A stretch of DNA of 64,000 nt from an uncultured Chloroflexia bacterium (GTDB taxonomy: Bacteria; Chloroflexota; Limnocylindria; Limnocylindrales; CSP1-4): positions 125,364-189,363 of the forward strand of contig CAWKLT010000013.1 of the NCBI GenBank assembly GCA_963850555.1, read 5' to 3'. Made by a program: the position numbers and the translations under genes. Positions 5,685 through 63,304 of the stretch are shown here, piece after piece. Numbering within the stretch: position 1 is the stretch's first letter; each line of letters starts with the position of its first letter. The notes beneath the pieces are model-generated. The model did not search any database. It saw only the letters and a program-made list of their open reading frames with translations, and was not told the DNA's origin.

Positions 5685-6714
5685 TCAGTCGGGGACCGGT
5701 GCGTCGGCGGCGAGGAGTCCCTGCGCGCGGAGCTCGGCCCACAGGTCGGGCGGGATCGAATGCGCGAGCATCGCGGGGTACTCGTCGAGGTGGGCGGGCG
5801 TCCGAACGCCGGCGACGAGGGACACGACGGCAGGATGCGCGAGCGGGAACTGCATCGCCGCCGCCCGGAGCGGTACACCGTGGCGGGCGCAGACCGCCCC
5901 GAGACGGCGGGCCCGCTCGATGATCTCAGGCGGCGCCAGGGCGTAGTCGAACCGGCTGCCCGGCCGGGGATCGGCGAGGACCCCGCTGTTCATCACCCCG
6001 CCGACCAGAACCGCGATGCCGCGTTCGGCGCACGTCGGCAGCAACTCGTCGAGTGCCCCCTGGTCCAGGAGCGTGTATCGGTTCGCGAGCAGCAGCACGT
6101 CCATGTCCGTCTCGCGGGCGAACCGCGCCAGCATGGCCGACTGGTTCATGCCGGCGCCGACGGCCCGGAGCACGCCCTCGGAGCGCATCCGCTCCAAGGC
6201 GGGCCACGCCTCCGAGATGGCCGCCGGCCAATGCTCGTCCGGGTCATGGATGAACGCGATGTCGATCCGATCGAGGCCCAGGCGCTCCAGGCTCTCTTCG
6301 AGGGAGCGGCGAATGCCATCGGCGCTGTAGTCGAACACGAGGCGGACCGGCTCGTGGCGGACATAGAACGCGTCGTCGAGGCCGTCGAGGCGTTGGTGGT
6401 CGATGTCGGCATCCGCCGGGATCGCCGCCTCGTCACGGACGAGTCGGCCCACCTTGGTCGACAGGACGAATGCGTCGCGGGGCCGACCCCGAAGAGCCTC
6501 GCCGACCCGTCGCTCCGAGGCTGCCGTACCCATACAGCGGCGCGGTATCGAAGGAGCGAATACCGAGATCCCACGCATGGCGAACCGTGGCGATCGCGTC
6601 GTCGTCGGTAACCTCCGCGAACAGGCCGCCGATCGATGCGCCACCGAAGCCGAGGCGCGTAACGGCGAGACCTGTCCGTCCGAGTGGCACCCGCTCAGTG
6701 GCGTCGATCGGCAT
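5685..6714 (-). pseudogene. aldo/keto reductase, frameshifted near 6515-6525
   Basis: N-terminus MPIDATERVPLGRTGLAVTRLGFGG...FDTAPLYGYG is in one frame (start 6714, SD GGAG). The remainder SERRVGEALRG...IAFIHDPD... continues in another frame (ORF 5685..7085). Together they total about 343 aa, typical for an AKR. Confidence 0.75.
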
Positions 6715-6825
6715 GGCTCCTGCAAGTTGCGTTCCGGTGGAGGTTGACGCGGTCCATGAGCGTAGCGTATCGTCCAGTCCTCGGTCCACCGGACAGAATG
6801 CTGAACGAAGCCCCGGGAGCCCATC

Positions 6826-7713
6826 GTGCGTTTGATGTCGTGCCGGTCCGCCGCCGGTGAGATCCTCGGGATCGTCGAGGGCGAGCGCTGGTTGCCTGCC
6901 GCGACGCTCCTCGCGAGCGGCCCCCGCACGATAGCCGACCTGCTCGCCGCCGGCCCCGACGCGCCAGCGGAGTTGCGCGAGGCGGCCGCGGCGGCGCGGA
7001 TCGGTACGACTGGGCGACCACTCGGCGAGGCCGACTTGCTCGCCCCGGTGCCACGCCCTGGCAAGGTGGTCGCGATCGGACGCAACTACCGGGAACACGC
7101 GGAAGAGGAAGGTGTCGAGCCGCCGACGGCGCCCCTGATCTTCTCGAAATGGCCGAGCTCGGTCGTGGGCCCCGGCGCAGACATCCGTTGGGATGCCGGG
7201 CTCACCGAGCAGGTCGACTACGAGGCGGAGCTTGCCGTCGTGATCGGTCGAACGGCTCGGCGTGTCGCCGTCGCCGACGCCCTCGAGCACGTGCTCGGCT
7301 ACACCTGCCTCAATGACGTGTCCGCTCGCGACCTCCAGTTCGGCGACGGCCAATGGACCCGGGGAAAATCGCTCGACACGTTCTGTCCGATGGGCCCGGT
7401 TCTCGTCACGTCCGACGAGCTCGGCGACGCAGGTGACCTCGCGATCCGCTGCTCGGTCGGCGATGACGTTCTCCAGGAGGCCCGCACATCGCAGATGTAC
7501 TTCTCCGTGGCGGAGATCGTCAGCTACTGCTCAATGGCCTTCACGCTGGAGCCCGGCGACGTGATCGCAACCGGCACCCCATCGGGTGTCGGTGCTTTCC
7601 GCAAACCTCCGCGATACCTCGCTGACGGCGATCGCGTCACCGTGGAGATCGAGGGCATCGGCGTGCTCGAAAACACCTGTCGGGTCGAGTCGGTGTCATG
7701 GGCGGCGGCGTGA
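6826..7713 (+). CDS. fumarylacetoacetate hydrolase (FAH) family protein (2-keto-4-pentenoate hydratase / diketo-deoxy-sugar-acid hydrolase type)
   Basis: 295 aa FAH C-terminal domain fold (GRNYREHAEE...GTPSGVG). It is divergent from the AKR gene. Confidence 0.85.
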   Translation: MRLMSCRSAAGEILGIVEGERWLPAATLLASGPRTIADLLAAGPDAPAELREAAAAARIGTTGRPLGEADLLAPVPRPGKVVAIGRNYREHAEEEGVEPPTAPLIFSKWPSSVVGPGADIRWDAGLTEQVDYEAELAVVIGRTARRVAVADALEHVLGYTCLNDVSARDLQFGDGQWTRGKSLDTFCPMGPVLVTSDELGDAGDLAIRCSVGDDVLQEARTSQMYFSVAEIVSYCSMAFTLEPGDVIATGTPSGVGAFRKPPRYLADGDRVTVEIEGIGVLENTCRVESVSWAAA

Positions 7714-11784: not shown

Positions 11785-13468
11785 ATGGACCAGATCGACA
11801 CCCGACCCACTACCGCGACCAGGCTCGAGGTGCCGGTCCTCATCATCGGCGCCGGCCCGGCTGGTCTGGTGACGGCCATCGGCCTCGCCCGGCAGGGCGT
11901 GCGCTCGCTTGTCGTCGAGCGCCATCCGTCGACCTCGATCTTCCCGCGGGCGACCGGCGTCAGCACCCGCTCGATGGAGATCTTCCGCACCTTCGGCATC
12001 GACGATGAGGTGCGTCGCGGCGGCTGGGGCATCGTGCCTCGCCAGGCGACGGTCCGATGGCTGGGCGACCCCGAACCCGTCGAGGGTGCCCTCGGCTTCC
12101 CGGATGCCGGAGGTAGCCGCGGCGGTGAGCCCGACGACCGCCACCGTGAGCCCGCAGGACCACCTCGAACCGGTGCTCGTCGACCACTACCGGTCGCTCG
12201 GCATGGGCGAGATCCGGTTTTCGACCGAGCTGGTCTCGTTCGAGGGGGATGCGGATGGCGTGACGGCCCGGCTCCGCGACCGGATCGGTGGCGAGGTCGC
12301 GACCGTCCGCAGCCGCTACCTGGTCGGAGCGGACGGGCATCGGTCCACGGTGCGTGGCGCCCTCGGGATCGCGATGGAAGGACCAGATGACCTGGGCCAG
12401 TACCTGAGCATCCTGTTCCGCGCCGACCTGTCCGACGTCCTGTCCGACCCCGTCTACGGGCTGTACATGATCGGCGTCAACAGTGGCCCGCCCACGGTCC
12501 TCGTGCCAAGCGGGGTCGATGGCCGGTTCGTCTTCGCGATCCCGCTCCCGCCGGGCGTGGATGCGGCCGCCATGGCTGCGGCCTTCCCGCCGGAGCGATG
12601 CGTCGCGATGATCCGCGAGGCCGCCCGGCGGCCCGATCTCGACGTCGAGGTACTGGCCACGAACGCGTTCGCCTTCTCGGCCCAGGTGGCGAGTCGCCTG
12701 CGTGAGGGTCGCGTCGTCCTCGTCGGCGATGCGGCACACCGGATGACGCCGCGCGGTGGTCGTGGCATGAACACGGCGATCGCCGACGCGTACGACCTCG
12801 GGTGGAAGCTGGCCTGGACGGTGCGCGATCTCGCCACGGATGCCCTCGTGGACAGCCACGAAGCCGAGCGCGGGCCGGTGGGTCGGCGCAATGTCGCGAT
12901 GTCGATCGTGCCCGGCGAGGGCGGCGGCACGGCCGACGGACTCCTCGAGGACCTGGGCGCGGTCGTCCGATCGGCGGTCATCGTCGACGACGGCTCGCCC
13001 GAGCCGGCCCCGACCGCTGTCGTCGGAGGCTCGTTCGTGCCGGATGCACGGCCCGGCGCCCGGGCGCCGCACGCGTGGCTGTCGATCGGGGAGGAGCGCG
13101 TCTCGACGCTCGACCTGTTCGGGCGCGAGCTGGTGCTCCTGGTCGCCGGCGACGGCGGCGCATGGCGGACCGCCGCGGCGTCCGTCGCCGGGTCCCTGCC
13201 CGGGCCGGCGGTGCGGGTCCGGAGCGTCGGCCGCTGGCTGCGCGACACCGACGGGACGTTCGCCAAGGCCTACGGCCTCGCCGACGGCGGCGCGGTGCTG
13301 GTCCGGCCCGACGGCGTGGTCGCGTGGCGCAGCCGGTCTGCGCCAGCCGACATCCGCCGCGCGCTGGCCGCCGCCGTGGCCGTCGCCACGGGGCGCGGCT
13401 CGGACGCGGACCGGGCTGCGCTCGGCAGCGTCGCCTCGGTCGCCGGTGCCGGCGAGGAGGCAGCGTGA
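11785..13468 (+). pseudogene. FAD-dependent aromatic-ring monooxygenase (PheA/TfdB family), frameshifted near 12113
   Basis: Start at 11785 with SD AAAGGAG. The N-terminus has GxGxxG (LIIGAGPAGL). The C-terminal 450 aa (DGHRSTVRGALGI...GDAAHRMTPRGGRGMNTAIADAYDLGWKLA) sits in ORF 11909..13468. Confidence 0.75.
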
Positions 13469-14254: not shown

Positions 14255-15539
14255 CTAGACCGCCGCAGGCTCCGGGTCCGTGACGGATGTCGGCAGTCCG
14301 TCGAGCAGCGGGTCCGTCCAGCTCCAGGCGGCCCCGTGGCGCGCCCCGACGGCCCCATGGCGCGCCGCCTCCACGCGGAGCGGCAGCCCGAAGATCTCGA
14401 TGAACCCGACGGCCGAGGCATGGTCGAAGGCGTCCCCCTCGTCGTAGGTCGCGAGGCTCTTGTCGTACAGCGACAACGGGGAGCGGCGTCCCGCGACGAT
14501 CGCCTGCCCGTGGTCCAGCCGGACCCGGACCTCGCCCGAGACCACGCGCTGCGACGACGCCACGTACGAACGCAGGTCGCGCGACAGCGCGCTGAACCAC
14601 AGGCCGTCGTAGATGAGGCGTGACAGCTCGTCGGCCACCAGCCGGTTGAAGCGGAGCGTGTCCCGCGACAGCGTCAGTCCCTCGAGCGCGTGGTGCGCGG
14701 CGTGGAGGATCGTGGCGGCCGGGGTCTCGTAGATCTCGCGGCTCTTGATGCCGACGAGGCGGTCCTCGACGTGATCGATCCGGCCGACCCCGTGCTTCCC
14801 GCCGAGGTCGTGCAGCTGCTCCACCAGGGCCACCGGCGCCAGGCGCTCACCGTCGAGGGCGACCGGCACCCCGCCCTCGAACTCGATCGTGACCTCGACG
14901 GGATCGGGCGCGTCGGCGGGAGTCGACCGTCCATTCGTACGCATCCGGCGGCGGGGTGACCCACGGGTCCTCCAGGACGCCGGTCTCGCACGAGCGGCCC
15001 CACAGGTTGACGTCGATCGAGTACGGCGATTCCTTGGTGATCGGGATCTCGATGCCGCGCTCGTTCGCGTAGTCGATCTCCTGGTCGCGGGTCAGGCCCA
15101 TGCCGACGCGCATCGGCGCGATGACCTCGAGCCCCGGATCGAGCGCGTGGGTCGCGACGTCGAAACGGACCTGGTCGTTGCCCTTGCCGGTGCAGCCATG
15201 GGCGACCGCGTCGGCGCCTTCGCGTTTGGCGACCTCGACCAGGAGCTGCGCGATCAGCGGCCGGGCGAGCGCGGTCGCCAGCGGGTACGCGCCCTGGTAC
15301 AACGCGTTGGCCTGGAGGTGCGGCCAGACGAAGTCGGTGACGAAGCGCTCGCGGCCGTCGACGACGTAGGCGCGCGAGGCGCCCGACGACATGGCCCGCG
15401 CCTCGACGCCGGGGCGCAACGACCCACCGCCGAGGTCGACGGTGAGCGTGACGACCTCGACCCCGTACTGCTCCTTGAGCCAGGCGACGGCGACCGAGGT
15501 ATCGAGACCGCCGGAGTAGGCGAGGACGACCTTGTTCAT
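14255..15539 (-). pseudogene. argG: argininosuccinate synthase, frameshifted near 14930
   Basis: N-terminus MNKVVLAYSGGLDTSV... is in ORF 14847..15539 and the C-terminal half is in ORF 14255..14944. The 1285-nt span equals about 428 codons, so a single indel explains the break. Confidence 0.85.
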
Positions 15540-15562
15540 GGCGGACTACGGAGCCTCCGAGC

Positions 15563-18275: not shown

Positions 18276-19433
18276 TACGGGGCCAGCGGGAGCTGCTCGA
18301 GGCCGGCCGTCTCGGGCAGGCCGTGGACGAGATTGAAGGCCTGGACGGCCTGTCCCGCCGCGCCCTTGACGAGGTTGTCCTCGACCCCGATCGCGATGAT
18401 CCGGCCCGTCCGCTCATCGAGCCGGACGTGAACGAGGACATGGTTGCTGCCGGTCGTGTGCTTGGTGGACGGCGGCGCGGCCACGACCCGGACGAACGGC
18501 TCGTCCGCGTAGGCGGTGGCGTAGAGCTCGTCGAGCTCGGCCTGCGTGATGGGGCGGGTCGGTCGAACGTGGTTGGTCGAATGGATCCCGCGGGTCATCG
18601 GGACGAGATGCGGCACGAAGTCGACGGTGATCGCACCCGGGTTCGCGCCAGGATCCAGGCCTTCGCGCGCAGCCGCGGCGGCGAGCTCCTGCTCGATCTC
18701 GGCGACATGGCGGTGACCGCCCAGGCCGTACGCCTTCACGTTCTCGTTGACCTCGCCATACATCATCTCGGCCTTGGCCTCGCGGCCGGCGCCGGACACC
18801 CCGCTCTTCGCGTCGACGACGAGGTCGCCGATGAGGCCGGCACGAGCCAGGGGCGCGAGCGCCAGGAGAGTCGCCGTCGGATAGCAGCCCGGCGCGCCGA
18901 CCAGCGCGATCTGGCGCGTCGACGAGGGCCGCAAGGTCGGCGCGATGGAGTTCCGGAAGGCCGTACACGGCGACGTCGAGCAGCTCGGGGGCGGGGTGCT
19001 CGAAGCCATACCAGCGCGGATAGTCGGCCGCCTCCCGGAGCCGGAAGTCCGGCCCGAGGTCGATGACCGCCGCGCCGGTGGTCAGGAGGTCCGGCACGAG
19101 CTTGGCCGCGGCGCCATGGGGGAGGGCCAGGAACGCGGCGTCGACCTCGGGCAGATCGGTGCCGACGGTCAGCTCGGTCGTGGCGAGGTGCGCGTGGTGG
19201 TCACCGACCGGCTCGTCATCGCGGTCGCGGCCGGCGAGCCCGACGATCTGGACGTTCGGATGCCGGCTCAGCAGCCGGATCAGCTCGCCGCCGCCGTAGC
19301 CGGTCGCGCCGATGATCCCGACACGGATGCGTCGCGCGCCGTCGATGCCGGGTACGCCCCGCTCCGAACGCGGGATGATCCCCGACGGCCGGTCCGTCGC
19401 GATCGCCGCGGGCGACCCGAGTCCTGCGCTCAC
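18275..19433 (-). pseudogene. argC: N-acetyl-gamma-glutamyl-phosphate reductase, frameshifted near 18920
   Basis: N-terminus RVGIIGATGYGGGELIRLL...YGLPELHR is in ORF 18414..19433. The C-terminus with the catalytic GCYPTA region is in ORF 18275..19009. Confidence 0.85.
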
Positions 19434-20669: not shown

Positions 20670-22777
20670 CAGTACGACGCGGCGGGCGTCGGTTCCTCCG
20701 CCGGCCGCTCCGACAGGAACTGCTCGCGATACAGCCGCGCGTACAGGCCGCCCTGGGCCAAGCAGCTCGGCATGCGTGCCACGCTCGACGATCCGCCCGC
20801 GGTCGTACACGAGGATCCGGTCCGCGCGCAGGATCGTCGAGAGCCGGTGAGCGATGGCGATGGTCGTGCGGCCCTCCATCAGCCGCTCGAACGCGGCCTG
20901 GATGAGCCGCTCGGACACCGTGTCGAGCGCGGACGTCGCCTCGTCGAGGATCAGGATGCGCGGATCCTTGAGCAGCACGCGGGCGATCGCGATGCGTTGC
21001 TTCTCGCCTCCGGACAGCTTGTAGCCGCGTTCGCCGACGATGGTCTCGTAGCCCTCGGGAAGCTCCATGATCCGCTCGTGGATCGCGGCCGCGCGGGCGG
21101 CAACCTCCAGCTCCTCGTCCGTCGCCTCGGGCCTGGCGTAGATGAGGTTCTGGCGCACGGACGCGTGGAACAGGTACGTCTCCTGGGTCACGACCCCGAT
21201 GATCTGGCCGAGCGATTCGAGCTTGATGCGCCGGATGTCGCGTCCGTCGATCTCCACCGCTCCGGCATCGACGTCGTAGAGCCTGGGGATCAGGTACGTC
21301 GTCGTGGTCTTGCCAGAACCCGATGGCCCGACGAGGGCCACCAGCTCGCCCGGCTGCGCCTCGAAGTCGATGCCCTCCAGCGCGAACGTCGGGAGCATCT
21401 CGATCGCGGGTGCTTCGGCCAGGGCATCGTCGGGCAGCATCCCCTCGGCGAGCGCCTCGACGGCCTCCTCCTCGACCGGGGCCGCGGCGAGCGCGGCCTG
21501 GATCTCCTCCGCTTCGCGATGCTGGTGACCCTGGGCGAGCGCGTCATGTGCCCGCGCCGAGGGCACGGCCTCGGTCGGGTAGCGGAACCAGACGTCGTGG
21601 AAGCGGACCTGCCCGCGGACCTGGTCGTGCTCGCAGGGCGACGGCGTCGGGCGCATCGACGATCTCGGGATCCATCTCGAGGTACTCGAAGATCCGGTCG
21701 AACAGCGCGAGCGAGCCCTGGATCTCGACCTGCACGTTGAGCAGCTGGCCGAGCGGGAAGAACAGCCGGCTCTGGAGGGTCGTGAACGCGACGATCGCGC
21801 CGGCGGTCGGGGCGTTGGGATCGCCATTGGCGGCGAGCGTACCGGCCAGCCAGTACACGAAGGCCGGCATGATGCTGAAGATCGTGCCGATGATCATGAA
21901 GAACCAGCGGCCGACCATCGCCTGGCGGATCTGGAGGCCCGCCAGGTCCTTGTTGATCGCCCGGAACTTCTTGATCGCGTTGGCCTGCTGGCCGAAGGTC
22001 TTCGAGCAGGAGCATGCCCGACACGCTGAGGGTCTCCTCGGTGGTCGCGCTCATCTCGGCCATGGACTTCTGCGTCTCGGTCGAGATCTCGCGCCGGACC
22101 TTGCCGACCCGGTAGGTCAGGTACAGGAAGAACGGCAGCAGGGCGAGCGACAGCACGGCCAGCTGCCAGCTCAGGATGAACATCGCCACGATCGTGCTGA
22201 TGGCGATCGCCAGGTTGCTGGTGATGGAGCTCGCCGTGTCGGTGACGACCGCCTGGACGCCGCCGACGTCGTTCGCCAGTCGGCTCTGGATCTCGCCGGT
22301 CCGCGTCTCGGTGAAGAAGCGCAGCGGCATCCGCTGCAGGTGCGCGTAGAGCGCGCCGCGCAGGTCCTGCATGACGTTCTGGCCGATGACGTTGTTGAGG
22401 TAGCTCTGGCCGACGCCGATCAGCCCGGTCACGATCGGCAGGATGATCATCAGCCCGACGTACAGGTTCAGCTTCTCGTACTCGCCACCGATGATGACCT
22501 CGTCGAGCAGCACGCCCAGCAGGAGCGGATTGACCAGGCCGATCAGGCTCGTGGCCAGGATCGCGACCAGGACGACCACGACCTGCAGGCGATAGGGCCC
22601 GAAGAACGCCACGATCCGCCGGAGCGTGCGAGCGCGTCGCTCCTTGGGAACCGGGGTGAACTCGGTGGTGGGTCCGCCCCACATCCCGCCGCCGCCGACC
22701 ATCCGGCGACCGCTGCCACCGCCGCCTCCCGCGGCGCCGCCCGTGGCGGTCCGTGTGCCGCCGCGCGGGAACCCCAT
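20670..22777 (-). pseudogene. fused ABC exporter (TMD-NBD, MsbA/CydDC-like), three frameshifts near 22004, 21615 and 20750
   Basis: The TMD is in ORF 21290..23383 and continues in ORF 21544..21918. The NBD with Walker A (GPSGSGKTT), signature [13 protein letters not shown] and Walker [13 protein letters not shown] is in ORF 20211..21827. The true C-terminus [16 protein letters not shown]...ASY-stop is in a third frame ending at 20670. The start ATG at 22777 overlaps the trxB stop (TAATG). Confidence 0.8.
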
Positions 22778-23877: not shown

Positions 23878-24838
23878 GACCGATATCGTATCACCTTTCC
23901 TATACCCCCCCAGAGTATGGAGCCGCCGTCCCGGCTCGCCGCTACAGCGCCTTGAGTCGCCGGGATGACCGCCGCCAGTGCGGCGATCCGGGCGGGGTCG
24001 TACACCTCGGGCACGCTGACGATGATGTGCTCCGCGCCCGCATCGGCGAGGTCCCCGAAGCGGTCCACGACCTGCGCCGCGGACTCCGCCCGACGACCGC
24101 TTTCGCGCGACAGGTTCACGTCCTGCAACGTGGAGCGCTCGATCTCGGCCGGATCGCGCCCGACCGCCGCGCAGTGCTCGTCGAGGATGCGGTACTTGCG
24201 CGCGATCCCTTCGGGCGATCCGAAGACGTTGCACGCGTCGCCGTACTGCGCCACGAGCCGCAGGGTCTTCTTCTCGCCGCCACCGCCGATCATGATCGGG
24301 ACGCGCGGCCGCGAGAGCGACTGCGGCGAGTTGAGCAGGCGCGCCGCGCTGTATGCGGCGCCCCTCGAACATCGCCTCCGACCCGCGCTCGCCGGACCAC
24401 ATCCCATGGGCCATCCGCAGCGTGTCCTCGAGCAGCTCGAAGCGCTCGCCAAGTGGCGGGAACGGGAAACCCAGCGCTCGCGATTCATACTCGTTCCAGG
24501 CTGCGCCGATGCCCAGCCAGGCACGCCCGCCCGAGAGCACGTCGAGGGTCGTCGCGGCCTTGATCCAGAGACCCGGGCTGGCGGTAGTGGACGCCGCCCA
24601 CCATCAGCCCGAGCCGGGCACGGCTCGAATGCGCCGCCATGAACCCGAGCGTCGTCCAGCCCTCGAGCATGGGCTCGTCGACGGCGCCGACGCTGCGGAT
24701 CTGGAAGAAGTGGTCCATGACCCAGATCGAGTCGAAACCGGCGTCGTCCGCGTCGCGCACGATGCGCCCCAGGGTCGGGCCGATGGCCTCCGGTCCACCC
24801 GGCCACGTGAACGACGGGATCTGCAGGCCGAGCTTCAC
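23874..24838 (-). pseudogene. LLM-class F420-dependent oxidoreductase, frameshifted near 24560 and 24360
   Basis: N-terminus MKLGLQIPSFTWPGG...DSIWVMDHFFQ is in ORF 24485..24838. The middle GRAWLGIGAAWNEYE... is in the frame of ORF 22777..24540. The C-terminus PIMIGGGGEKKTLRLVAQYGDACN... is in ORF 23874..24806. Confidence 0.7.
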
Positions 24839-44881: not shown

Positions 44882-46038
44882 ATGACTCGTTCGCTCCGCA
44901 TCGCCCAGGTCGCCCCGCCCTTCGAGCGCGTGCCACCGCGGGCGTACGGCGGGACGGAGCGCATCGTGCACGGGCTGGTCACGGAGCTCGACCGCCGAGG
45001 TCACGAAGTCACGACCTTCGCCAGCGGCGATTCCGTGGTGCCTGGCCGACACATCGAGACGGTGCCCGAGGCGCTCCGCCCCCTTGGCTACGCCGGCGAT
45101 TCGCTGCCGTACATGCAGCTGACGCTCCACGAGGTCCTGGCGCGCGCCACCGAATTCGACCTGATCCACGCGCACATGGAATGGGCCAGCCTGCTGCTCG
45201 CCCGTGTCAGCCCCGTCCCGGTCGTGACGACGTTCCACGGCCGGCTGGACCTTCCGTGGGCCGACGCGCTGCTGCGAAACCCGCCCGAAGGGCTCGTCGC
45301 CATCAGCGAGAACCAGGCCGGAACGCACCCTGACGTGCCGTGGGCCGCGGTCGTCCACAACGGCCTGCGCCTGACCGACATGCCATTCGGATCGAAGCGG
45401 ACCGACGCGTTGTGCTTCGTGGGACGGGTGGTGCCCGAGAAGGGGATCGTCGAGGCCATCGAGATCGCCGTGGCGGCCGATCGCCCGTTGCGCATCGCGG
45501 CCAAGGCCGGCCCGACGGCACGTGGAAGCGCGACTACTTCGAGAACGTGTTCCGGCCGGCGATGAAGGCCGCGGGCTCGCTCGTCGAGTACCTCGGGGAG
45601 CTCGACCAGACCGATCGCGACGACCTCTTCGCACAGAGCTACGCCACACTGATGCCTGGGTCGTGGCCGGAGCCGTTCGGCCTCGTCCTCATCGAGTCGC
45701 TGGCGGCCGGCACGCCGGTCATCGCCCGGCGGGTCGGCGGCCTGCCCGAGATCCTGCGAGACGGCATCGATGGCTTCTTCGGCGACGACGTCAAGGGCAT
45801 GGCCTTCAAGGTCGACCGCGTGGTCGACCTGGATCGGCGGGCGATCCGCGAGTCGGTCCTCGACCGCTTCTCGGTCGAACGGATGACCGATCGATACGAG
45901 GCCGTGTATTCAGCCCGCCTCGACGCGGCCAGAAAGAAGATCGCGGTCGGACCTGGAGCGGCCCAGGGTGGCGACGAGGACGCCGAGGAGCCCGAGCAAT
46001 TGGCCGCCCACCGGATGGGGACGCTCGCCCGGCGCTGA
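44882..46038 (+). pseudogene. glycosyltransferase family 4 protein, frameshifted near 45515
   Basis: The N-terminal Rossmann half (start MTRSLRIAQVAPPFERVPP...) is in ORF 44822..45565. The C-terminal half with the E(x7)E region (EPFGLVLIESLAAGTPVIA) is in ORF 45340..46038. Confidence 0.8.
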
Positions 46039-48803: not shown

Positions 48804-49803
48804 CAGGCGTCCTCCTCGGACAGGTGATCCCGGGCCATGCGGTCGCGCTGGACGAGGATCGCGAAGACCTCGTCGAACGACTGTCGCGCCTCGCTCGCCG
48901 ACGTCACCTCACCGCCACGCTGGGTGATCGCCTCGACGACCTCCGGCATCGCCGTGGAGGCGTCGTCGACCATGACCCGCAGGCCGTTCGGTTCCGCGCC
49001 GCTCGACGCTCCGGACGACCGGCAACGCCGAGAGGCTTGCGCTGTCGAACTCGTTGCCGAGCTCGATCTCGACGGCGTCTCCGCCCATCGCCTCGCGGCG
49101 CAGGTCGTCGGGACGCGCCAGGGCGATGAGCCGGCCGTCCGAGATCAGGGCCACGGTGTCGCATTCCTCCGCCTCGTTGACGTACTGGGTGGTCACGAGG
49201 AGCGTCCGTCCGTCATCGCGCAGGCGATGCAGCTCCTTCCAGACGGTGGCCCGCAGGATCGGGTCGATCCCCGCGGTGGGTTCGTCGAGGAACAGCAGGT
49301 CGGGATCGTGGACGAGCGCCGAGGCCAGCTCCAGTCGTCGCTGCATGCCACCGGACAGGCGACCGGCGCGCCGACCACGGGCGTCCCACAGGTCGACGAG
49401 CTGGAGCACCTCGCGGGTGCGACGGTGACGGGTGCGCCACAGGATGCCGAACAGCGACGCGACGAAATCGACGTTCTCGCGCGCCGTCAGGTCCGGGTAG
49501 AGGGTGAACTGCTGTGGCATGTACCCGATCCGCTCGCGGGTCTGTCGCCGGAAGGTCCGCGGGTCCTCGCCGAGCACGCGCACTTCACCGTCGTCGGGCG
49601 CCAGCGCCCCGGTGAGCAGACGGATCGTGGTCGTCTTGCCGGACCCGGACGGGCCGATGATGCCCAGGATCGTCCCGCTCGGAACCGACAGCGAGATCCC
49701 GTCGACCGCGGTGTCGTCGCCGAAGCGCTTCGTGGCCCCGTCGATGACGACGGCCGCCCCGGCATCCGGCAGCGCGTCGGCCGTCGCCGCCGCATCAGGT
49801 CTC
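48804..49803 (-). pseudogene. ABC transporter ATP-binding protein (ABC-2 family), frameshifted near 48990
   Basis: GTG start at about 49803 with SD GGAGAC. Walker [10 protein letters not shown], signature LSGGMQRRLELA, Walker B LLFLDEPTAG. The C-terminal domain ...EPNGLRVMVDDASTAMPEVVEAITQRGGEVTS...SEEDA-stop is in another frame and ends at 48804, overlapping the permease ATG. Confidence 0.8.
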
Positions 49804-51250: not shown

Positions 51251-51984
51251 AGGGGAGCGAGAAGCCGATCTCCACGGCGCCCGCCTCGCCATCGGTCACC
51301 CACGTCCTGCCACGCATCGCCTCGATCAGACGGCCGGCCACGTACATCGCGATGCCGGGGCTGACCGATCCCGGCCCCGGGTCCGAGACCGGAAGCTGGA
51401 ACAGGTCCGCCCCGATCCTCGACCGAGAGCGTGCCCGTCCGGTCGAGGAGTCGGCAGAACACCTGCTGGTCCTCGCCACTCACGGCGACCTCCAGGTCCG
51501 TCGCCCCGGCAGCGCGCCACGCGACATTGGCGATGAGATTGCGCAACGCGTGAGCCAGGGCGCCCGGATCGGCGGCGGCCGGTGGTGGCGTCCCGTCGAG
51601 CCGGAGCATGACGCGCAGGCCCGGCCAGCGCGGCGCCTCGATCTGTGACCCGGCGTCGACCGCACGGATCAGGGAGATCGGCTCACGGGTCACGCGGACC
51701 GCGTCGTGCTCGAGTCGGGTGAGGACCAGGAGGTCCTCGACGGCCCGGAACAGGCGCGCAGCCTCGTGATACACGTCGGACGCGAGCTCGCGGCGCATCG
51801 CCGGGAGGAGGTCCTCGTCCCGGGCGAGGACCGCGCTACCCGCGTAGATGGTCGTGATCGGCGTTCGCAATTCGTGCGCGAGCACGCCCAACAGCGCTTC
51901 GTGCTCCGCGGCGCGGGCACGTTCGGACGCCTGGGGCGGACCTTGGGCAATGTCGGACTGCGGCATGCTCCAAGAGTCGGCCAT
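51231..51984 (-). pseudogene. soluble histidine kinase (HisKA plus HATPase, no sensor domain), frameshifted near 51440
   Basis: The H-box LAHELRTPITTI and N/G1 blocks are in ORF 50719..51984. G2 and the C-terminus (LFQLPVSDPGPGS...EIGFSLP) are in ORF 51231..51479. Confidence 0.7.
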
Positions 51985-52072: not shown

Positions 52073-53283
52073 TCAGCCTTCGCCGTCGTCCTCGATCAAG
52101 GGCAGGGCGACGACGACCGTGGTGCCGCGTCCCCGGCCCGTCGGAGTGGAGCACGAGCGTGCCGTCGTGCGCGGCGACGATGCCCCGGCAGGCATACAGC
52201 CCGAGGCCAAGCCCGGGGATGCCCTGCGCTCGAGCGCGGTCGGCCCGCACGAAGCGGTCGAACACGGTCCCGGCTTCGTCGGTGGTGAGACCCATGCCCT
52301 GGTCGCGGATCGTGAGCTGGCCGATCCCATCGGCGGCACGCTCGGTGTGGATCTCGACGCGACCGCCGCCGGGCGAGTACTTGAGGGCGTTGCTGATCAG
52401 GTTCGACACGACGCGCCGAAGGAGGTGCGGATCCCAGAGGCCGACCAGCGGATCGGCGGACGGCTCGAAGTCGATCTGGCGGCGCGTCTCGGCGTCGAGC
52501 AGCGCCAGCGCGTCGGCCACGATCGCATCGAGCTTCGCCGGTTCGGGATCCGGCTCCAGCGCCCCCATGGCCAGCCGCGAGGCGTCACCGAGGGTGTCGA
52601 GCATGATGTTGATCTCGTTGACCGCGATCACGGCACTCTTGACGACGTCCGTGATGCGCTCGCGGTCGAATTCGGGCTCGCCCAGCCACCGGGCGGCGAG
52701 ATCGAGCGATCCCGTCACCAGCGTGATCGGCTGGCGGATGTCGTGGACCGTCGTCGCCAGGAACTCCTCGCGCAGGCTCTCGACGCGATCCGAGAGCGCG
52801 TCCAGCCCGACCGTCGCGGCACCGTCGAGCGCATCGTCGATGACGGCCTGTCCCGCGAGGAGGTCGCGGGCCGGGGGCGTCATCGACGGAGGCGATGAGT
52901 GCCCGCCCGATCTCATGACGGAGCAGGCGGAACTCGGTCACGATCGCCACCGGCCCGAGACCCTGCTCGAAGCGCATCTGCGCATGCGCCTTGGCCGCGT
53001 CGATCACGGCCGGGTCGTCCATCGGCGGCTGGAGGTCGTTGCGATAGTTCGAGGTCCGCAGGACGCCGATGATGTTGTCGAGCAGCACGGGGATGTGATC
53101 GGCGACCGAGGCGGTCGGATTGTCGGCGTGGAACGGCTGCTCCAGGGCTGCCTTCAGCCACGCTGCGAGGATCGCGCCACGCCGGCGCGCGAGGGCCTCC
53201 GCGATCGGGCCCAGGTCGGCGTCGTCGACGACCCCCTCGATGCGTTGATCGATGTCGGCTGCGGCGTCATCGGCCTCGGACAT
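52073..53283 (-). pseudogene. histidine kinase with an N-terminal unknown sensor domain, frameshifted near 52900 and 52140
   Basis: The N-terminal domain of about 130 aa (MSEADDAAADIDQRIEG...) is in ORF 52585..53313. HisKA (VHDIRQPITLVTG) and HATPase (ISNALKYSPGGG...DQGMGL) are in ORF 51690..52916. The C-terminal residues are in ORF 52073..52339. Confidence 0.65.
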
Positions 53284-56385: not shown

Positions 56386-57361
56386 CTGAGCCCCGTCACC
56401 GCCCGGCTGTTCGATGCCGACGGCCACGACCGGCGGATCGACCTGGCCGACCTCGACGTCTCGAAGCTCGGCGACCGACAGCTCCTGTGGGTCGACATCG
56501 ATCGAGCCGATGACGACGAAGCCCTCCACGAGCTGGCGGCTCGCCTGGAGCTCCCCGAGGCGGAACAGGAACGACTCGGGAACGAGCTGGGTCGTGCCAA
56601 CTCCTGGCGGTCCGAGGATCGGCTGCACCTCACCCTCGAGGCCCTCGAGCCCGCGGAAGACGACCCCGGCCGGCTGACCCGTCGCGAGATCGACCTGGTC
56701 GCGAGGCGGAACCTCGTGCTCTCCGTGCACGCCGGCCCGGTCGGCGCCCTCGAGCGGTACGTCGATGGCCTGGATGGCGAAACCCGCCTGGGCGCGCTCG
56801 ATGCCGCCGACCTGCTGTCGGCGCTGGTGGACGAGGTCCTCATCGGGTACTTACCAGCTCGTCGAGATGATCGAGCGCGACATCGACGACCTCGACCAGC
56901 GCGCCCTGCACGGCCGGCCCAAGGACGACGTCCTGGGTGCCCTCGTGTCGCTCCGACGGCGCATCGGACTCGTGCGCCGAACGCTCGCCCCGCATCGCGA
57001 GGCGCTGGCCGCCCTGGCCCGGCCCGGAGATGCAGTCGGAAGAGGCCGTCGGCCAGCCGTGGCCCGGGCTCGTCGACCGCCTCGAAGGTGCGATCGCGGC
57101 GATCGATTCGGTGCGCGACAGCCTGCTCGGCACGTACGACATCCACATGGGCCGGGTCTCGCAGCACGCGAACGACGTCATGAAGACGCTGACCCTGTTG
57201 TCCGGAGTGCTGCTGCCGGCGGTCGTGCTGGCCGGCATCATGGGCATGAATTTCGAGATGCCGTTCTTCGAGGACACGACGAACTTCTGGATCGTCGTGG
57301 GCTCGATGATCGGGATGGCCATCGTGATCCTGGCCGTGGCCCGCTGGCGCGACTGGATCTA
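56386..57361 (+). pseudogene. corA: magnesium/cobalt transporter CorA, frameshifted near 56860 and 57030; start codon not identifiable
   Basis: The N-terminal cytoplasmic domain reads in one frame from about 56386, the middle YQLVEMIERDIDDLDQRALHG... in ORF 56765..57868, and the C-terminal TM domain with the GMN motif (LAGIMGMNFEMPFFE) in ORF 56937..57362. Confidence 0.8.
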
Positions 57362-57394: not shown

Positions 57395-58527
57395 CTACTT
57401 CGACGAAGCGTTGGCGGCGTCCGGCAGCGAGCGCTCGTAGCCCTCCGTCGTCTCCTCATCGGGGGTCTCGATCGCGGCGGGGTCCTGGGCGACCGGCGTC
57501 TCGCGGGCCTGGAGCCGGGACAGGACGATCTCGATCGAGGCGGCGATCGGCACGGCGAGGAACGCCCCCAGCAATCCGCCGACCTCGGCGCCCACGAGCA
57601 GGCTGAACAGCACGAGGAGCGGCGAGATCCCGATCGTGTTGCGCATGACGATCGGCACGAGGACGTTGCCCTCGACGAGCTGGAGCACGACGTAGATCAG
57701 CGCCACGACGAGGGCGAGCTCCGGCGAGACCGTGGCGGCCACGAGGATGGCCGGGATGGCCCCGAGCAGCGGCCCGACGATCGGGATGGCCTCGGTCAGG
57801 GCGGCGATCAGGCCGAGCAGGAGGGCCCCCGGCAGGCCCAGCAGCGAGTAGGCGACGGCCGGTCGTGACGCCCATGAAGCCCATCAGGATGAGCTGCCCG
57901 CGGACCCACAGGCCCAGGCGCGTCTCGATCTCGTTCCAGGCGTTGCGGGCCCCGGCGCGCCGGTCGGCCGGCAGGAACGCCAGGGAGTAGCGCTGCAACC
58001 GGGCGTGCTCCACGAGCCAGAAGAACACGATGGCCAGCATCGTGAACAGGAAGAGCGCCGCCTCGGCGACGGCGGTGCCGACCTCCACGACTTCGCCAGG
58101 GCTCGGCGGCGGGGCCGGGGCGAAGATCTCCGCCACCGAATCGACGAGGGCCGTGATCGACGTCGAGAGGGCGACCGGTCGCAGGGTCGCCGGCCCATGC
58201 GCGCACCTCGTCGAAGAACGGCGGCAACGCGGCGATGATCTTCTGGCCCTGGTTCACCGCCGCCGGCACGACGATGAAGGCCATGCCGATCGCGACGATG
58301 AAGAAGGCGAGGTAGACGATGAGGATCGTCCCGACGCGACCCATCGGGAGACGCTCGCGCAGCCAGCCGATCATCGGCTCGAGCGCCGACGCCAGCAGGA
58401 CGGACAGGAACAGGAGCAGCAGGACATTCGCCGCCGCGATCCCGAGCTGGATGAGGCCGAACACGAGCAGGGCACCCGCGGCGAGGCCCATGCCGCGGAT
58501 CCCCCAGGTGGTCAGGTCGGAACGCAT
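57395..58527 (-). pseudogene. AI-2E family transporter (PerM/UPF0118), frameshifted near 58190 and 57850
   Basis: Three colinear pieces lie in ORFs 57808..58527, 57456..58136 and 57395..57742. All are hydrophobic and together total about 377 aa. Confidence 0.8.
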
Positions 58528-61184
58528 GTCGGCGGACTGTGGAGGGGAGTCAATGCCGTGTCAATCGCCGTCTGGAGGCGGGGGCGTCGGCTTGGGGTCG
58601 CCGCCACCTGGCTTGTCGGGCTTGTCAGGCTTGTCCGGCTTGTCGCGGCTTGTCCGGCTTGTCCGGCGTCGCGTACCGGCGCTCGGTAACAGGCCCCGTA
58701 CAGCGGACCGCCCCACGAGCTCTCGCCCCAGAAGTAGGCCGTCGACGAGTCGTAGCGACCGGTGACGCCGTTGCCCCGCCGCGCCCGCGCGCAGCCAGTC
58801 CTGCGACGTCCGCCTTCCACGCCGACCGTCCGAGCTCGGCCTTGACCGGATCGACCCGCCAGCCGCCACAGCCCGCCCGGTACAGCAGGCCATCCCGGTC
58901 GATCGCCTTTCGCGCGCCCGGCTGCGTGCCGCGGATGAACCATTCCTTGGTCGTGTCCCGTGTCCACGAGCCGGGTCGGCCGCCGGACCAGGCGTCGATC
59001 GTCGCCGAGACGACGTCCTTCGGCCGCTTGAACTTCGCGACCTTCCACGTGCGCGTGTAGTCGCGGACGAACGCGCGCCACAGCGGCGCAGCCGCCGTCA
59101 GCGATGTGGCCGCGTCGCCGCGCGAACGCGGGTAGGAGTGGTCGCTGTTGCCCATCCAGACGCCGACGGCCAGGCCGACGCCGTCCTTGCCGCTCGCCGG
59201 CAGGAAGCCGTAGGTGCCCAGGTCGCGGGCGTCGTTGGTGGTGCCGGTCTTGGCCGCCGCCGGCCGGCGCGACCCGCCGGGACCGTTGCGCAGCGCCAGC
59301 TTCGCGGCCCAGATCTCGTTCTGACGGGGATCCGTGTTGCCCGCCAGGATGTCGCTGACGAGGAAGGCCGACTGCGCGGAGATCGCCCGTTCCCCGTCGG
59401 GCTTGGGCGCCTCCCAGACGACCCGGCCGTCGGATCCGCGGATCTCGAGGACCATCCGTGGCGGCACGCGGACGCCGCCGTTGGCGATCGTCCCGTACGC
59501 GGACGTCAGGTCGATCGGGCGGACCTCGACCGTCCCGAGCGCGCCCGCCAGGCCCGCCTGGAGGAAGGCCTTTCGGCCACCGGTGAACCGGATGCCCATG
59601 GCCTCGGCGGTGTCGGCGACGCGTTCGTTGCCGACGCGATGGAGCGCTCGGATGGCCGGGATGTTGAGCGAGTACTGGAGGGCACGCCGGACGAGGACCG
59701 GACCGCGCTCGCGCTGGTCGGCGTCGCGCGGGGCCCAGTCCTGGCCCTTGTCGAACTCGGTCGTCACGTCGAGCAGGAGGCTGCCCGGGCTCAGGCGCTT
59801 CGCGTTGAACGCGGCCGCGTACAGGATCGGCTTGAACGCCGAGCCGGGCTGCCGGGCGCCGTCGCCGGCCGCGTCGTACTTCGGCTCGAAGACCTTGCTC
59901 GCGAGGTCGTCGCGGGCGTAGCCGGCACTGCCGACGTAGGCGAGCACGTCGCCGGTCCGATAGTCGAGGGCGACGAGCGCTGCGTTGTGCAGGTCCTTGC
60001 CGCGCAACGCCGTGATCCAGCGCCGATCGCCGCTCTTGATCTTGAGGTCTTTGAGCATCGCCGCCGACTTCTTGCGGGAGATGTTCGGGGCGATGGCCGC
60101 CGCGCCGAGCCAGCGCTCGGCGAGCCGCTGCGCCTTCCAGTCGAGGGTCGTGATGACCCGGTAGCCGCCCCGTTCCAGGTCGGCGTCCGGTCCCAGGATC
60201 GCCAGCAGCTGGCGACGGACCTGCCACGTGAAGTGCCCGCCAGGGATCCGGATCGGTCGCTCCCCGGCCAGGACGACCGGCTCGTCCAGGGCCGCCTTGA
60301 GCTCGGCCGGGGTGAGCTTGGTCCACCGCCCGGCCGTCGCGAGACCCTCGAGGACCCAGTCGCGTCGAACGACCGGCTCGGCGGTCGAGCGGGACCACGA
60401 GGCGGCCGTCGTCGTCCTTGACCGCGTACCGGTACGGGTCCAGCGTCGATGGGGCCTTCGGAAGTCCGGCGAGCAGCGCGGCCTGCGCCACCGTCAGGTC
60501 CGCGAGGTCCGTCACGCCGAAGTAGACGTCGGCCGCCGCGGCGATGCCGTAGGCCTCGTGGCCGTAGTAGATCTCGTTGAGGTACGCGCTGATGACGCGT
60601 TCCTTGCCGGCGGCGCCCGGGTACTCGTCCGTCAGCCGGAGCGCCTGGACGATCTCCTTGGCCTTGCGCATGTAGCGGTCCGAGCCGGTCACGACGTCCT
60701 CCGGCAGGAGCCGCGCCCGGACGAGCTGCTGGGTGATCGTCGACGCGCCGCGCTCGCTGACGCCGGACGCGTTCTCGGCCACGGCCGAGATCAGGGCGGC
60801 GGGGTCGATGCCGGCGTTGTCCCAGAAGGAGCGGTCCTCGGCCGTCGTCGTCGCATCGAGGACGAGGGTCGGGATATCGGCGTAGTCGATGACACGCCGG
60901 CGCTGGTCCTGGAACCGTCCGAGCTCGGTCTTGCCGGAGCGGTCGTAGACGATCGTCGGTTGCGCGAACGCGAGCTTGCCGAGGTCGCTCGGATCGGGCA
61001 GGTCGGATGACAGCACGCCCAGCGCCGATACCGACACGATCCCGGCGAGGCCGACGACCACGAGCGCGGACGACGCCACGGCCGCGAGGACCGCCCCGAG
61101 GCGGCGCGAGCGCGTGCCCTGTGGCGGCCGACGGCGGACCGATTCGGCGCGACGCATCGCGACGATCCGCGTGGTCCTGGTCAT
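58512..61184 (-). pseudogene. class A penicillin-binding protein (transglycosylase plus transpeptidase), frameshifted near 60410 and 58700
   Basis: The GT51 domain (EDRSFWDNAGID...GASTITQQL...RKAKE) is in ORF 58512..61307 from the Met at 61184. The transpeptidase domain with SxxK (GSAFKP), SLN and KTGTT motifs is in ORF 58625..60058. A Pro/Asp/Lys repeat tail follows. Confidence 0.85.
58611..58665. repeat. 9-bp tandem repeat (GCTTGTCNG x6) in the PBP C-terminal tail; one unit is 10 bp
   Basis: gcttgtcgg gcttgtcag gcttgtccg gcttgtcgcg gcttgtccg gcttgtccg encodes (PDK)n on the minus strand. The 10-bp unit breaks the frame. Confidence 0.8.
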
Positions 61185-61361
61185 GTGGACGCGCCGGGCA
61201 GGGTGTGACGGCAGACGACGGCGAGCATGAGCCGATGCTGCGGGTGCGATGGTGTCGGCCGCGCTGGCTCGCGGAGCCGGCCGGTTGCACCACCATGTCA
61301 GCGCCACAAGAGGTGTTGCGTTCAGTCACCTACCATGACCGCTCCACAGGAGGAGATGGCG

Positions 61362-62019
61362 ATGTCGGACGAGCCCCAGCGCAGTGACCGGGACGCCGGC
61401 CGGATCGTCGTCGGCGGGACGGGGCGCGTGTCGGTGGAACCGGACGTCGCCGACCTCGACTGGGCGTCTCGGTGGCCCGGCCAACGGTCGACACGGCTCG
61501 CGCCGTCGCCGCCGACGACGATGGCCGCGATCCTCGCCGCGGTGGCCGACGCGGGGGTCGAGCGCCGCGACGTCCGGACGACGCTGCTGTCCGTGCAGCC
61601 GCGCTACGACTACCGCGAGAACCAGCCGCCGGTGTTGACCGGATACGAGCTGGCCAACGTCGTCGAGGTCACGGTCCGCGACCTCGCCCGCCTCGGCGAG
61701 GTCGTCGACGGCACCCTGCGCGCCGGAGCGACGAGCATGGACGGACTGTCGTTCCGGGTGGACGACCCGGCTCCGGCCGAGCGCGAGGCACGATTGCGCG
61801 CGATGGCCGCGGCCCGCGCTCGGGCAGACGTGCTTGCCGAGGCGGCCGGGCTGTCGATCGTCGGGGTGTCGGACATCGTCGAGGGCGGCATGCCGTCGCC
61901 GCCCGGAGCCTCGCTACAAGGCCGCGCGGATGATGATCGCCGAGGACGCATCCACACCCGTCGAGGCGGGCTCCATGGAGATCGCCGTCAGCGTCACGGT
62001 CACCTACCGGGCGCGCTGA
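61362..62019 (+). pseudogene. SIMPL domain (DUF541) protein, frameshifted near 61905
   Basis: SD AGGAGG upstream of ATG 61362. The conserved TGYELANVVEVTVRDLARLGEVVD...GLSFRVDDP is in ORF 61227..62114. The C-terminus EPRYKAARMMIAEDASTPVEAGSMEIAVSVTVTYRAR is in ORF 61834..62019. Confidence 0.75.
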
Positions 62020-63304
62020 GCCTAGCCGCCCGTCGACGACGACGCGCAGCAGGTCGCCGCTCGACAGGTCGGTCGCGAACAGCTCGCCGGCCGCGTCCTC
62101 CGCGATCGCGCTGATCGAGCGCTCGCTTTCCGCGGCCAGGGATCGGGTCACGGAGGTCGTCCGGCTGAGGATCGAGGACCCAGAACCGTCCCGAACAGTA
62201 GTCGGCGAAGACGTACCAGCCGCGTAGGGCCGGTTGCGCCTCGCCGCGGTAGACGGTGCCACCGGTCACGGAGCATCCCAGGTCGTGGGCGTATTCCGTC
62301 ACCGGCAGGGTCAGCTCGTCGGTCAGGCAGTCGGTGCCGCCGTCGCGGTAGCAGGCCGAGCCCTCCATGATGTTCCAGCCGAAGTCGAGCCCGCCGACGC
62401 CCGCCCGCGCGACGTCGATCTCCTCGCGAGTTCCCTGCCCGACGTCGCCGATCCAGAGATCGCCGGTCGCCCGGTCGAAGCGCATCCGCCACGGGTTGCG
62501 CAGACCCGTGAGCCAGATCTCGTGGCGGGCTCCGCCGAGGTCCAGGAACGGATTGTCGTCCGGGATGCCGTAGGGCCGGTCAGCTCCGGCCTCGACGTCG
62601 ATGTCGATGCGCAGGATCTTCGCGAGCAGCGTCGAGAGCTGTCGCCCGGAGTCGAGCGGGTCGCCGCCGCCGCCGCCATCGCCGGTCGAGATGTACAGGT
62701 GGCCATCCGGTCCGAACGCGAGCCCGCCGCCGTTGTGGTTCCCGAACCGGTCGTCCATTTGCAGCAGGATCACGGCGCTGTCGGGGTCGGCCCGGTCGCG
62801 GTCGTCCGACCGGGTCTCGTACGAGGCCACGACCTGCGTCCCATCGAGCGCGGTGTAGTAGACGAAGAAGCGTGGGTCCGCGGCCGACGGGTGGAACGCG
62901 AGACCGAGGAGACCCTGCTCGCCGCCGGCGGTGACGAGGCCGCCGATGTCCAGGAAGGGTCGATCGACCAGGGCGCCATCGCGAACGATGCGGATCTGCC
63001 CACCTTGCTCCACCACGAACAGCGTCGACGGATCGTCGGCGCGCCAGGCGATGTCGAGCGGCGATTCGAGGCCACCGACGACCGGTTCGAGGCCGAGGCG
63101 GGGCGGCTCGCCGATCGCGCCCGGGGGTTCCGCGGAGCTCGGATCCGGAGCCACGGAGACCGAAGGCGCGGCTGTCGCGGGCGGCGCGGTCGTGGGCGCG
63201 TCAGTCGCCGGAGGCGAGGGCTCGGCCGGGGCCGCGCAGCCAGCCACGAGCGCGATCGTCAGCACGCTCAGCAGCCACGTCCGGATTCGATGTCGGGGAC
63301 GCAT
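62000..63304 (-). pseudogene. PQQ-dependent sugar dehydrogenase (soluble aldose dehydrogenase, YliI/GSDH family) lipoprotein, C-terminal frameshift near 62150
   Basis: Translation from the Met at 63304 opens with signal peptide and lipobox MRPRHRIRTWLLSVLTIALVAGC. Beta-propeller blocks follow (GLLGLAFHP, HNGGGLAFGPDGHLYISTGDGG, GWNIMEG). The tail ...SISAIAEDAAGELFATDL... is in ORF 61669..62262. Confidence 0.75.

Follow-up and report, generated by a model that had tools for sequence, protein, structure and literature searches.

Frameshifted genes in a Candidatus Limnocylindrales contig as probable consensus insertion errors of a long-read assembly

Residual errors in long-read assemblies are a recognized cause of broken gene models. 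Consensus sequences from Nanopore R10.4 data are near-finished only at about 40x coverage and the indels that remain give rise to frameshifted gene calls (PMC9262707). Such long-read errors are described as "pseudogenizing" genes, the classical Nanopore profile being one of homopolymer-associated false deletions, with insertion errors less tied to homopolymers (PMC12007338), and Nanopore-associated errors have been noted by the authors of a further study in its lower-coverage metagenome-assembled genomes (MAGs) (PMC12313526). Here, we analyze a stretch of 64,000 nucleotides (hereinafter the window; 71% G+C) from contig CAWKLT010000013.1 of an uncultured Candidatus Limnocylindrales bacterium (Chloroflexota), in which a preliminary description had reported about 25 conserved genes interrupted by frameshifts while neighboring genes are intact. 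Judging from comparison with related sequences, we place at about 95% the probability that these frameshifts are consensus insertion errors of a long-read assembly and not gene decay; the real genes of the organism would then almost certainly be intact.

The window resembles the published long-read artefacts (PMC9262707, PMC12007338, PMC12313526) in that its 1–2-nt indels vanish upon comparison with orthologs, in that the rate varies from contig to contig, as a dependence on coverage would predict, and in that the signature is confined to long-read assemblies. It departs from the classical pattern of homopolymer false deletions in that insertions make up about 95% of its single-base events and, of the approximately 29 insertions resolved to the base, just 1 lies in a homopolymer. 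With the reductive pseudogenization of Mycobacterium leprae, Sodalis and recent host-restricted bacteria it shares the presence of many interrupted genes beside intact neighbors; however, real decay brings nonsense mutations, deletions of all sizes, insertion-sequence (IS) insertions and relaxed selection, none of which is found in the window. With programmed +1 frameshifting, as in the bacterial prfB gene or, pervasively, in Euplotes, it shares the need for a +1 shift at almost every site, but it differs in lacking a conserved motif, an adjacent 0-frame stop and conservation of the sites in orthologs.

No tRNA genes were found in the 64,000-nt window, and an Rfam scan of it returned no match. 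The intact 894-amino acid (aa) AceE has its nearest homologs (71–90% aa identity) only in MAGs of the Candidatus Limnocylindrales/Limnocylindria (Chloroflexota), and these AceE-bearing relatives come from a mixture of long-read assemblies (with contig names of the form "MFD...contig_N") and short-read assemblies (k141 and NODE). The relatives with intact gene copies are free-living soil and freshwater MAGs. The close relatives with intact gene calls include a JGI contig (L082), part of a 2.9-Mb ENA contig (L081; ERZ25039516 contig_1642), a 27.8-kb ENA contig (L083; ERZ25039510 contig_78231) and a short-read k141 ENA contig showing synteny with the window over 48–61 kb (L089). The DNA identity of close relatives to the window is 91–96% over 6–28 kb and 88% over 48–61 kb.

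Split genes and the spectrum of their lesions

The reading frames of the window were segmented using a six-frame Viterbi procedure operating on codon-position G+C (GC3) with stop codons forbidden, and this yielded a same-strand frame switch at essentially every coordinate in the preliminary description, the true sites lying no more than about 45 nt away. Pfam profiles were matched to the translations of each frame piece, and the resulting coordinates are colinear across frames in the aldo/keto reductase, FAD monooxygenase, argG, argC, DUF4395, ABC exporter, first luciferase-like monooxygenase (twice), cofE, inositol monophosphatase-family (IMPase), pncA, ABC-2 permease, corA (twice), AI-2E (twice) and SIMPL genes. 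We further wrote a frameshift-aware protein-to-DNA alignment that takes the called genes of close relatives as references, and with it 25/25 of the reported gene splits were recovered; likewise, when orthologs were aligned at the DNA level, a 1-nt change restored the frame at essentially every site. Forty-one called genes of L081, L082 and L089 could be aligned over their full length to the window with ~77–99% aa identity, interrupted solely by +1, +2 or −1 events, and none of these 41 alignments has an in-frame stop that can be ascribed to the window. The single stop that was scored (21292) was rejected, as the frameshifted L081 reference is to blame and no stop arises at this point when the L082 ortholog is used. 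The core genes argG, argC and the class A PBP, the last with five events, are struck as earlier claimed, and aceE, argJ, argB, trxB, cofC, cofD and the sugar-transporter genes are intact in the alignments, again as described. Events beyond those first listed are 23959, 51161, three of the four events in the tail of the PBP and the 61455/61515 pair.

Events were retained only if all or most of the covering relatives agreed. For L084–L086, which are only 70–79% identical to the window, plain blastn gave noisy results with many compensating gap pairs and was replaced by the protein-to-DNA alignment. Stop-to-stop reference open reading frames (ORFs) produced spurious events or "stops" at gene ends (32064, 33288, 38087 and 37.1–38.1 kb), which were discarded, and possible further events at ~29905, ~42130, ~50097 and ~51210 were left out of the count.

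The high-confidence events number 43 (0.67/kb), comprising 39 of the +1 type, two of the +2 type (27375 and 45521) and two of the −1 type (19944 and 61455). Insertions account for 39 of the 41 single-base events (binomial p = 8e-10 for +1 versus −1). At the +1 sites, alignment of the DNA shows every covering relative to be shorter than the window by exactly one base, and all 43 events are private to the window among the covering relatives, which are other species with 88–96% DNA identity. About 29 insertions could be resolved to the base: ~23 of them are isolated (for example, GGC[T]GCC, GAG[C]AGG and GGC[A]GCA), five form a doublet and a single one (52875) falls in a true homopolymer, in keeping with the earlier remark that most sites are not in long homopolymers. 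The inserted bases are T in 7 cases, A in 5, C in 5 and G in 10, the A+T content of the genome being 29%. Private 1-nt insertions are also seen in intergenic regions, such as those at 51986, 52015, 54319, 54336, 54550 and 56032. The original proposal, that indel errors had arisen in a long-read or MAG-derived assembly, can be refined in that the errors are of one particular type, insertions of single bases away from homopolymers.

Real bacterial pseudogenes carry mixed lesions with a deletional bias, and spontaneous 1-nt insertions arise mostly by slippage in runs. These expectations bear on genuine pseudogenization, the fallback of the preliminary description, according to which reductive evolution or mutational decay would have truly removed about 25 genes by frameshift. 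The frameshifts are indeed present in the deposited sequence, they strike many genes, some of them repeatedly, and read support cannot be shown by sequence alone. However, none of the 43 lesions is a nonsense codon (p = 7e-5 if 20% of inactivating lesions were nonsense), the window genes have no deletions greater than 1 nt, the insertion-to-deletion ratio of ~20:1 is the opposite of a deletional bias, and the insertions are not of the slippage type. Nor is the ratio of nonsynonymous to synonymous substitution rates (dN/dS) relaxed in the split genes: against close relatives its median is 0.091 in split genes (n = 17) and 0.115 in intact genes (n = 14; Mann–Whitney p = 0.86), although as a test of relaxed selection this is weak if inactivation is very recent. 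Moreover, essential genes, which reductive decay is expected to spare, are not exempt, the core genes named above being among those struck; the free-living relatives keep intact copies, and the same spectrum is seen at other sites in long-read contigs and never in short-read ones. The lesion types, the dN/dS values and the long-read-only signature strongly disfavor decay, and we hold it to be very unlikely.

The directionality of the events might alternatively bespeak pervasive programmed recoding, with the extra bases being real and dealt with by +1 ribosomal frameshifting, bypassing or transcript-level correction, as 39 of the 43 events need the same (+1) correction and the downstream frames are open and conserved. 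Yet there is no slippery or homopolymer motif, and no position up to 12 nt on either side of the shift sites departs in composition from the background beyond the expectation of 25 tests. If the old frame is read on past the site, a stop is first reached after a median of 273 nt and never within 6 nt, the orthologs in all relatives are in frame with the sites not conserved, +2, −1 and intergenic 1-nt insertions are also present, and other long-read contigs of related species are affected in different genes. We regard such recoding as extremely improbable. A methylation motif suggested by the occurrence of GATC near several sites was also considered and rejected: the GATC at 10544 is created by the inserted base itself and there is no deviation near the sites. 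Phase variation or transcriptional slippage at simple repeats likewise lacks, at most sites, the tract that it would need, ~23/29 insertions being isolated bases. More broadly, it is exceedingly improbable that the extra bases are real and that the bacterium tolerates or decodes ~40 +1 frameshifts per 64 kb; were this true, +1 recoding would have to operate throughout the genome, or the lineage would be an insertion-biased mutator in early mutational meltdown.

Long-read relatives, the deposited record and the probable origin of the frameshifts

The same kind of lesion recurs at other positions in related long-read contigs. Against the proteins of the JGI contig L082, L083 displays 22 frameshifts in 4,855 codons, of which 21 are +1, in genes that include Ldh_2, an epimerase, DAO, argB and the ABC exporter; L081 displays two, both +1; and the window itself nine, eight of them +1. 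The sites all differ between the window, L083 and L081. For a broader comparison centered on the aceE locus, a conservative tblastn criterion for private frame switches was applied: the 26 Nanopore loci of the MFD type (284 kb) have 17 such switches, of which 15 are +1, as compared to none in 433 kb from 53 short-read loci. If equal rates are assumed, the chance of all 17 of 17 switches falling in the long-read fraction is ~1e-7. Thus, the frameshift signature is tied to data type and not to the organism and, given the zero count among the short-read relatives in the same kind of test, the frame switches of the window are far above chance. Together with the lesion spectrum, the dN/dS values, the lack of a recoding signal and the presence of truncated products in the deposited record (see below), these cross-contig controls make up five independent lines of support for the interpretation originally preferred, namely, indel errors in a long-read or MAG assembly.

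The density of private single-base insertions is not uniform across these contigs, the whole L083 locus having ~22–26 of them (1.5/kb), more than twice the density of the window. The ABC exporter is struck in all three long-read contigs at different positions, three times in the window, twice in L081 and four times in L083; the two +1 events in L081 (positions 6510 and 6613 of that locus) cause it to be called as separate genes of 530 aa and 173 aa.

The frameshifts can be traced in public databases. Two truncated products of the window, an ArgG of 230 aa and an ABC-2 ATPase of 304 aa, occur verbatim in NCBI and ENA entries in a collection of 15 billion proteins, and both map to the same single 253,514-bp contig as ArgJ, AceE, ArgB and TrxB of the window, with ArgJ being 100% identical to its database protein (NCBI and ENA) from that contig. 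In comparison to the 304 aa of the truncated ATPase, its orthologs in the same 90% cluster are 338–339 aa in length. As the two truncated products are present verbatim in these databases, the errors were already in the deposited assembly. This bears on the idea that the sequence was corrupted after deposition, for instance by the addition of synthetic indels, such that the frameshifts would be absent from the public record. The random-looking identity and context of the inserted bases would be compatible with it, as would the fact that searching the contig index for exact copies of AceE and of ArgJ (P0001) returned no match. The verbatim truncations run counter to it, however, and natural ENA contigs bear the same signature, leaving this idea extremely unlikely.

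Several ENA-only members of the 90% clusters of ArgG, TrxB and the ABC-2 ATPase also have odd lengths (P0252, 486 aa; P0292, 777 aa; P0309, 564 aa). These look like frameshift truncations or fusions, which suggests that the protein collection contains many artefacts of this kind.

We accordingly favor consensus error in a long-read assembly, for which the following course is the most likely. One spurious base, or rarely two, would have been inserted at ~0.7 sites per kb, with a base being dropped occasionally, and each such error would shift the frame, with the result that gene callers break up a single intact gene into two to six pieces. The source contig (253.5 kb, Candidatus Limnocylindrales) probably comes from a Nanopore assembly made with metaFlye and a single round of Medaka, of the kind produced by the Microflora Danica long-read effort. 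Low or uneven read depth may lie behind the errors, and their mild clustering would fit local variation in depth or read quality.

Several points weigh against this account. The proposed link to Microflora Danica is based on naming style, data source and nearest relatives and not on an accession, and the status of each site as an error derives from comparison and not from raw reads or coverage. The nearest independent sequences belong to other species (88–96% DNA identity), with no intact copy from the same strain among them. The classical Nanopore profile of homopolymer association and deletion excess is not what is observed, with 1 of ~29 insertions in a run of at least 4 and 39/41 single-base events being insertions. 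While this weakens the case for "typical homopolymer error", it does not weaken that for "consensus error"; nevertheless, textbook Nanopore errors leave an insertion-dominated, non-homopolymer profile unexplained, and the basecalling, the Flye consensus or the Medaka step are candidates for its source. Finally, the spacing of events is mildly over-dispersed (index 1.4–2.3), with three clean stretches of ~6.5 kb along with local clusters, and to accommodate these one must further assume that depth or quality was uneven.

The consequences are practical: nothing biologically new is implied and the value of the case is as a data-quality warning. About 40% of the window's genes are mis-called in the public record, and the truncated and fused products are already in protein databases. 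Taken at face value, the "broken" argG and argC would lead a metabolic reconstruction to arginine auxotrophy, and the same naive reading would also infer the loss of the class A PBP, transporters and kinases, along with a surplus of "pseudogenes". As the insertions do not lie in homopolymers, polishing directed at such runs would leave them in place; the remedy is read-based re-polishing or ortholog-guided frameshift correction. Until corrected for frameshifts, gene boundaries and protein predictions here and in contigs like L083 and L026 cannot be trusted.

Individual sites and neighboring genes

In the minus-strand aldo/keto reductase gene, an extra T at 6522 (+1) appears as a 1-nt insertion in blastn against L083; the protein-to-DNA alignment agrees, and the Pfam Aldo_ket_red match is split between frames into 1–45 and 45–287 with the junction at 6523. 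The plus-strand gene for a DAO/lhgO-like FAD oxidoreductase has an extra C at 10544 (+1), absent in 3/3 close relatives, and the 403-aa L082 protein aligns over 390/403 residues with one +1 event. The next gene affected, coding for a TetR regulator (minus strand), has a +1 event at 11375, the base being absent in 2/2 covering relatives and the L082 TetR aligning over 212/220 residues with one +1. In the plus-strand FAD monooxygenase gene, G becomes GG at 12109..12110 (+1); the base is absent in 2/2 covering relatives, the protein-to-DNA alignment agrees and Pfam FAD_binding_3 is split into 1–65 and 80–347. Two private single-base deletions (13657 and 14019, relative to L081 and L082) are intergenic and lie beside intact conserved ORFs of 71 and 58 aa.

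The arginine biosynthesis cluster (14257–19355) has the order argC-argJ-argB-argR-argG, with argD and argF not located between argB and argR, and this order is identical in L081, L082 and L083. Both of its split genes are on the minus strand and have a single +1 event with the base absent in 3/3 relatives: in argG (14921..14922), Pfam matches are colinear across frames and the L082 ArgG aligns over 423/427 residues with one +1 event and no stop, and in argC (18911..18912), the Pfam domains are in separate frames and the L082 ArgC aligns over 346/359 residues with one +1 event. The plus-strand DUF4395 gene offers one of the two missing bases (−1 at 19944), with 3/3 relatives having one base more, the protein-to-DNA alignment also calling −1 and Pfam DUF4395 split into 1–88 and 88–127. 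The ABC exporter gene on the minus strand has three +1 events, all absent in 3/3 relatives, at 20761 (A to AA), 21633..21634 and 22007 (extra C), with the protein-to-DNA alignment agreeing for the latter two; the L082 protein aligns over 675/684 residues with three +1 events, and Pfam ABC_membrane is split at 22007 into 2–188 and 194–273.

The minus-strand gene of the first luciferase-like monooxygenase has a probable +1 near the C-terminus at 23959..23960, seen against L081 only, and two further +1 events found against both L081 and L005, namely an extra T at 24350, where Pfam Bac_luciferase is split into 80–151 and 153–283, and an extra C at 24578, where the split is 25–82 and 80–151 and tblastn also places a junction. 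The cofE gene (minus strand) has +1 events at 24963 and 25063. The L081 CofE aligns over 246/255 residues with two +1 events; L005 agrees for the former site and L081 for the latter, which is an extra T with Pfam F420_ligase split into 5–178 and 176–208. The second luciferase-like monooxygenase gene, again on the minus strand, has an extra TG at 27375..27376 (+2), seen as a 2-nt insertion relative to L081 and in protein-to-DNA alignments to L081, L004 and L043, and an extra A at 27501 (+1), on which L081, L025 and L004 agree; as the preliminary description had held, this pair is compensating, the +2 and +1 together restoring the frame.

Genes related to coenzyme F420 are dense at 23.9–28.7, 37.7–38.05 and 46.4–47.3 kb, comprising cofC, cofD, cofE, three luciferase-like monooxygenases, a gene of the PNPOx family and one resembling DUF2255/F420H2-quinone reductases. 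This complement suggests an F420-dependent redox metabolism in this Limnocylindrales lineage.

In the plus-strand IMPase gene, an extra G at 33990 (+1) gives the window one base over six relatives at the DNA level and is recovered in 8/8 protein-to-DNA alignments, the Pfam profile being split into 8–144 and 182–265. The minus-strand pncA/isochorismatase-family gene has two +1 events, each called in 14/14 relatives by protein-to-DNA alignment. The first, at 35999..36018 (~36014; resolved to ~20 nt), has short-read assemblies among its supporting relatives and 26 supporting loci in the tblastn comparison of aceE loci, and the second lies at 36135..36150 (36141). A PAS histidine kinase on the minus strand has its domains spread over three frames by +1 events at 42931, seen in the DNA alignment and in 3/3 relatives by protein-to-DNA alignment, and in its N-terminal part at 43385..43412 (43397), called in 3/3 relatives by the latter method. 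Between this kinase and the following glycosyltransferase gene, a stretch of ~1.1 kb (43650–44780) has neither codon-position G+C periodicity nor a Pfam match, and its only resemblance to other sequence is a weak one (~50% identity) between 44371–44800 and a small ORF present in two relatives; the stretch may not code for protein, be specific to the lineage or have been scrambled by multiple errors.

The GT4 glycosyltransferase gene (plus strand) has a +2 event at 45512..45527 (45521), with 2 nt over eight relatives at the DNA level and 9/9 relatives concurring in the protein-to-DNA alignment. The ABC-2 transporter is hit in both of its components on the minus strand: the permease has a +1 at 47906, evident in DNA alignment to eight relatives and in 5/5 protein-to-DNA alignments, with Pfam ABC2_membrane_3 split into 5–258 and 256–346, and in the ATPase T becomes TT at 48992..48993 (+1), as judged from L089 and 5/5 relatives.

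The type IB topoisomerase (Top1B_N_bact and Topoisom_I domains; 50031–51265) is encoded on the plus strand and is ~81–97% identical across many Limnocylindria and other soil MAGs. Its gene has an extra G at 51031 (+1), found against L089 and in 6/6 relatives, and a probable +1 at 51161 relative to L089, an event that L008 and L013 put at ~51135. Two histidine kinase genes on the minus strand follow. In that coding for a 244-aa protein, an extra T occurs at 51406..51408 (+1), the L089 ortholog aligning over 227/244 residues with one +1 event, and in that coding for a 402-aa protein with an RsbRD_N domain, +1 events at 52127..52128 and 52873..52877 (52875; G4 to G5) are each agreed upon by L089, L084 and L013.

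A lesion of another type is a 20-nt tandem duplication (TCCTTGGCCTGCTGAGCGGC / TCCTTGGCCTGGTCGGCGGC) at 54239–54278, which is private to the window and frameshifts a minus-strand gene for a 120-aa hypothetical protein (53936–54316). One of the copies is absent in L089 and L084 and the gene itself is conserved; being unlike the single-base insertions, the duplication could be real or an assembly artefact.

In the plus-strand corA gene, an extra A at 56853 (L089 and L084 agreeing) and an extra G at 57026..57027 (L089, L084 and L086 agreeing), both +1, split Pfam CorA into 3–125, 124–179 and 197–290. The AI-2E transporter gene on the minus strand similarly has its Pfam profile split into 6–97, 114–217 and 211–324 by +1 events at 57856..57858 and 58184..58201 (~58190), both apparent in the DNA alignment with L089 agreeing. 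The five events in the minus-strand gene of the class A PBP are all +1. In the C-terminal tail, two are probable, namely 58645, on which L089 and L084 agree, and 58667..58668, which is called by protein-to-DNA alignment to L089 with blastn indicating a net frame change; those at 58789 and 58804 are found by blastn in 4/4 relatives with the protein-to-DNA alignment agreeing. The fifth, at the join of the transglycosylase and transpeptidase regions (60383..60389; 60386), is found in 4/4 relatives with the Pfam domains in two frames, and the L089 protein aligns over 829/871 residues.

The plus-strand SIMPL/DUF541 gene has a −1 event at 61455..61456 (blastn 3/3 and protein-to-DNA 4/4 relatives), which is offset 60 nt downstream by an extra A at 61515 (+1; L084 and L085, with 4/6 relatives in the protein-to-DNA alignment), and a further +1 at 61896..61904 (61902) found in 7/7 relatives, where Pfam SIMPL is split into 1–171 and 170–205. 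In the glucose/sorbosone dehydrogenase (GSDH) gene on the minus strand, an extra A at 62142..62143 (+1) is seen against L084 and L085 and in 7/9 relatives by protein-to-DNA alignment, and the Pfam GSDH match ends at 275/332 in the first frame.

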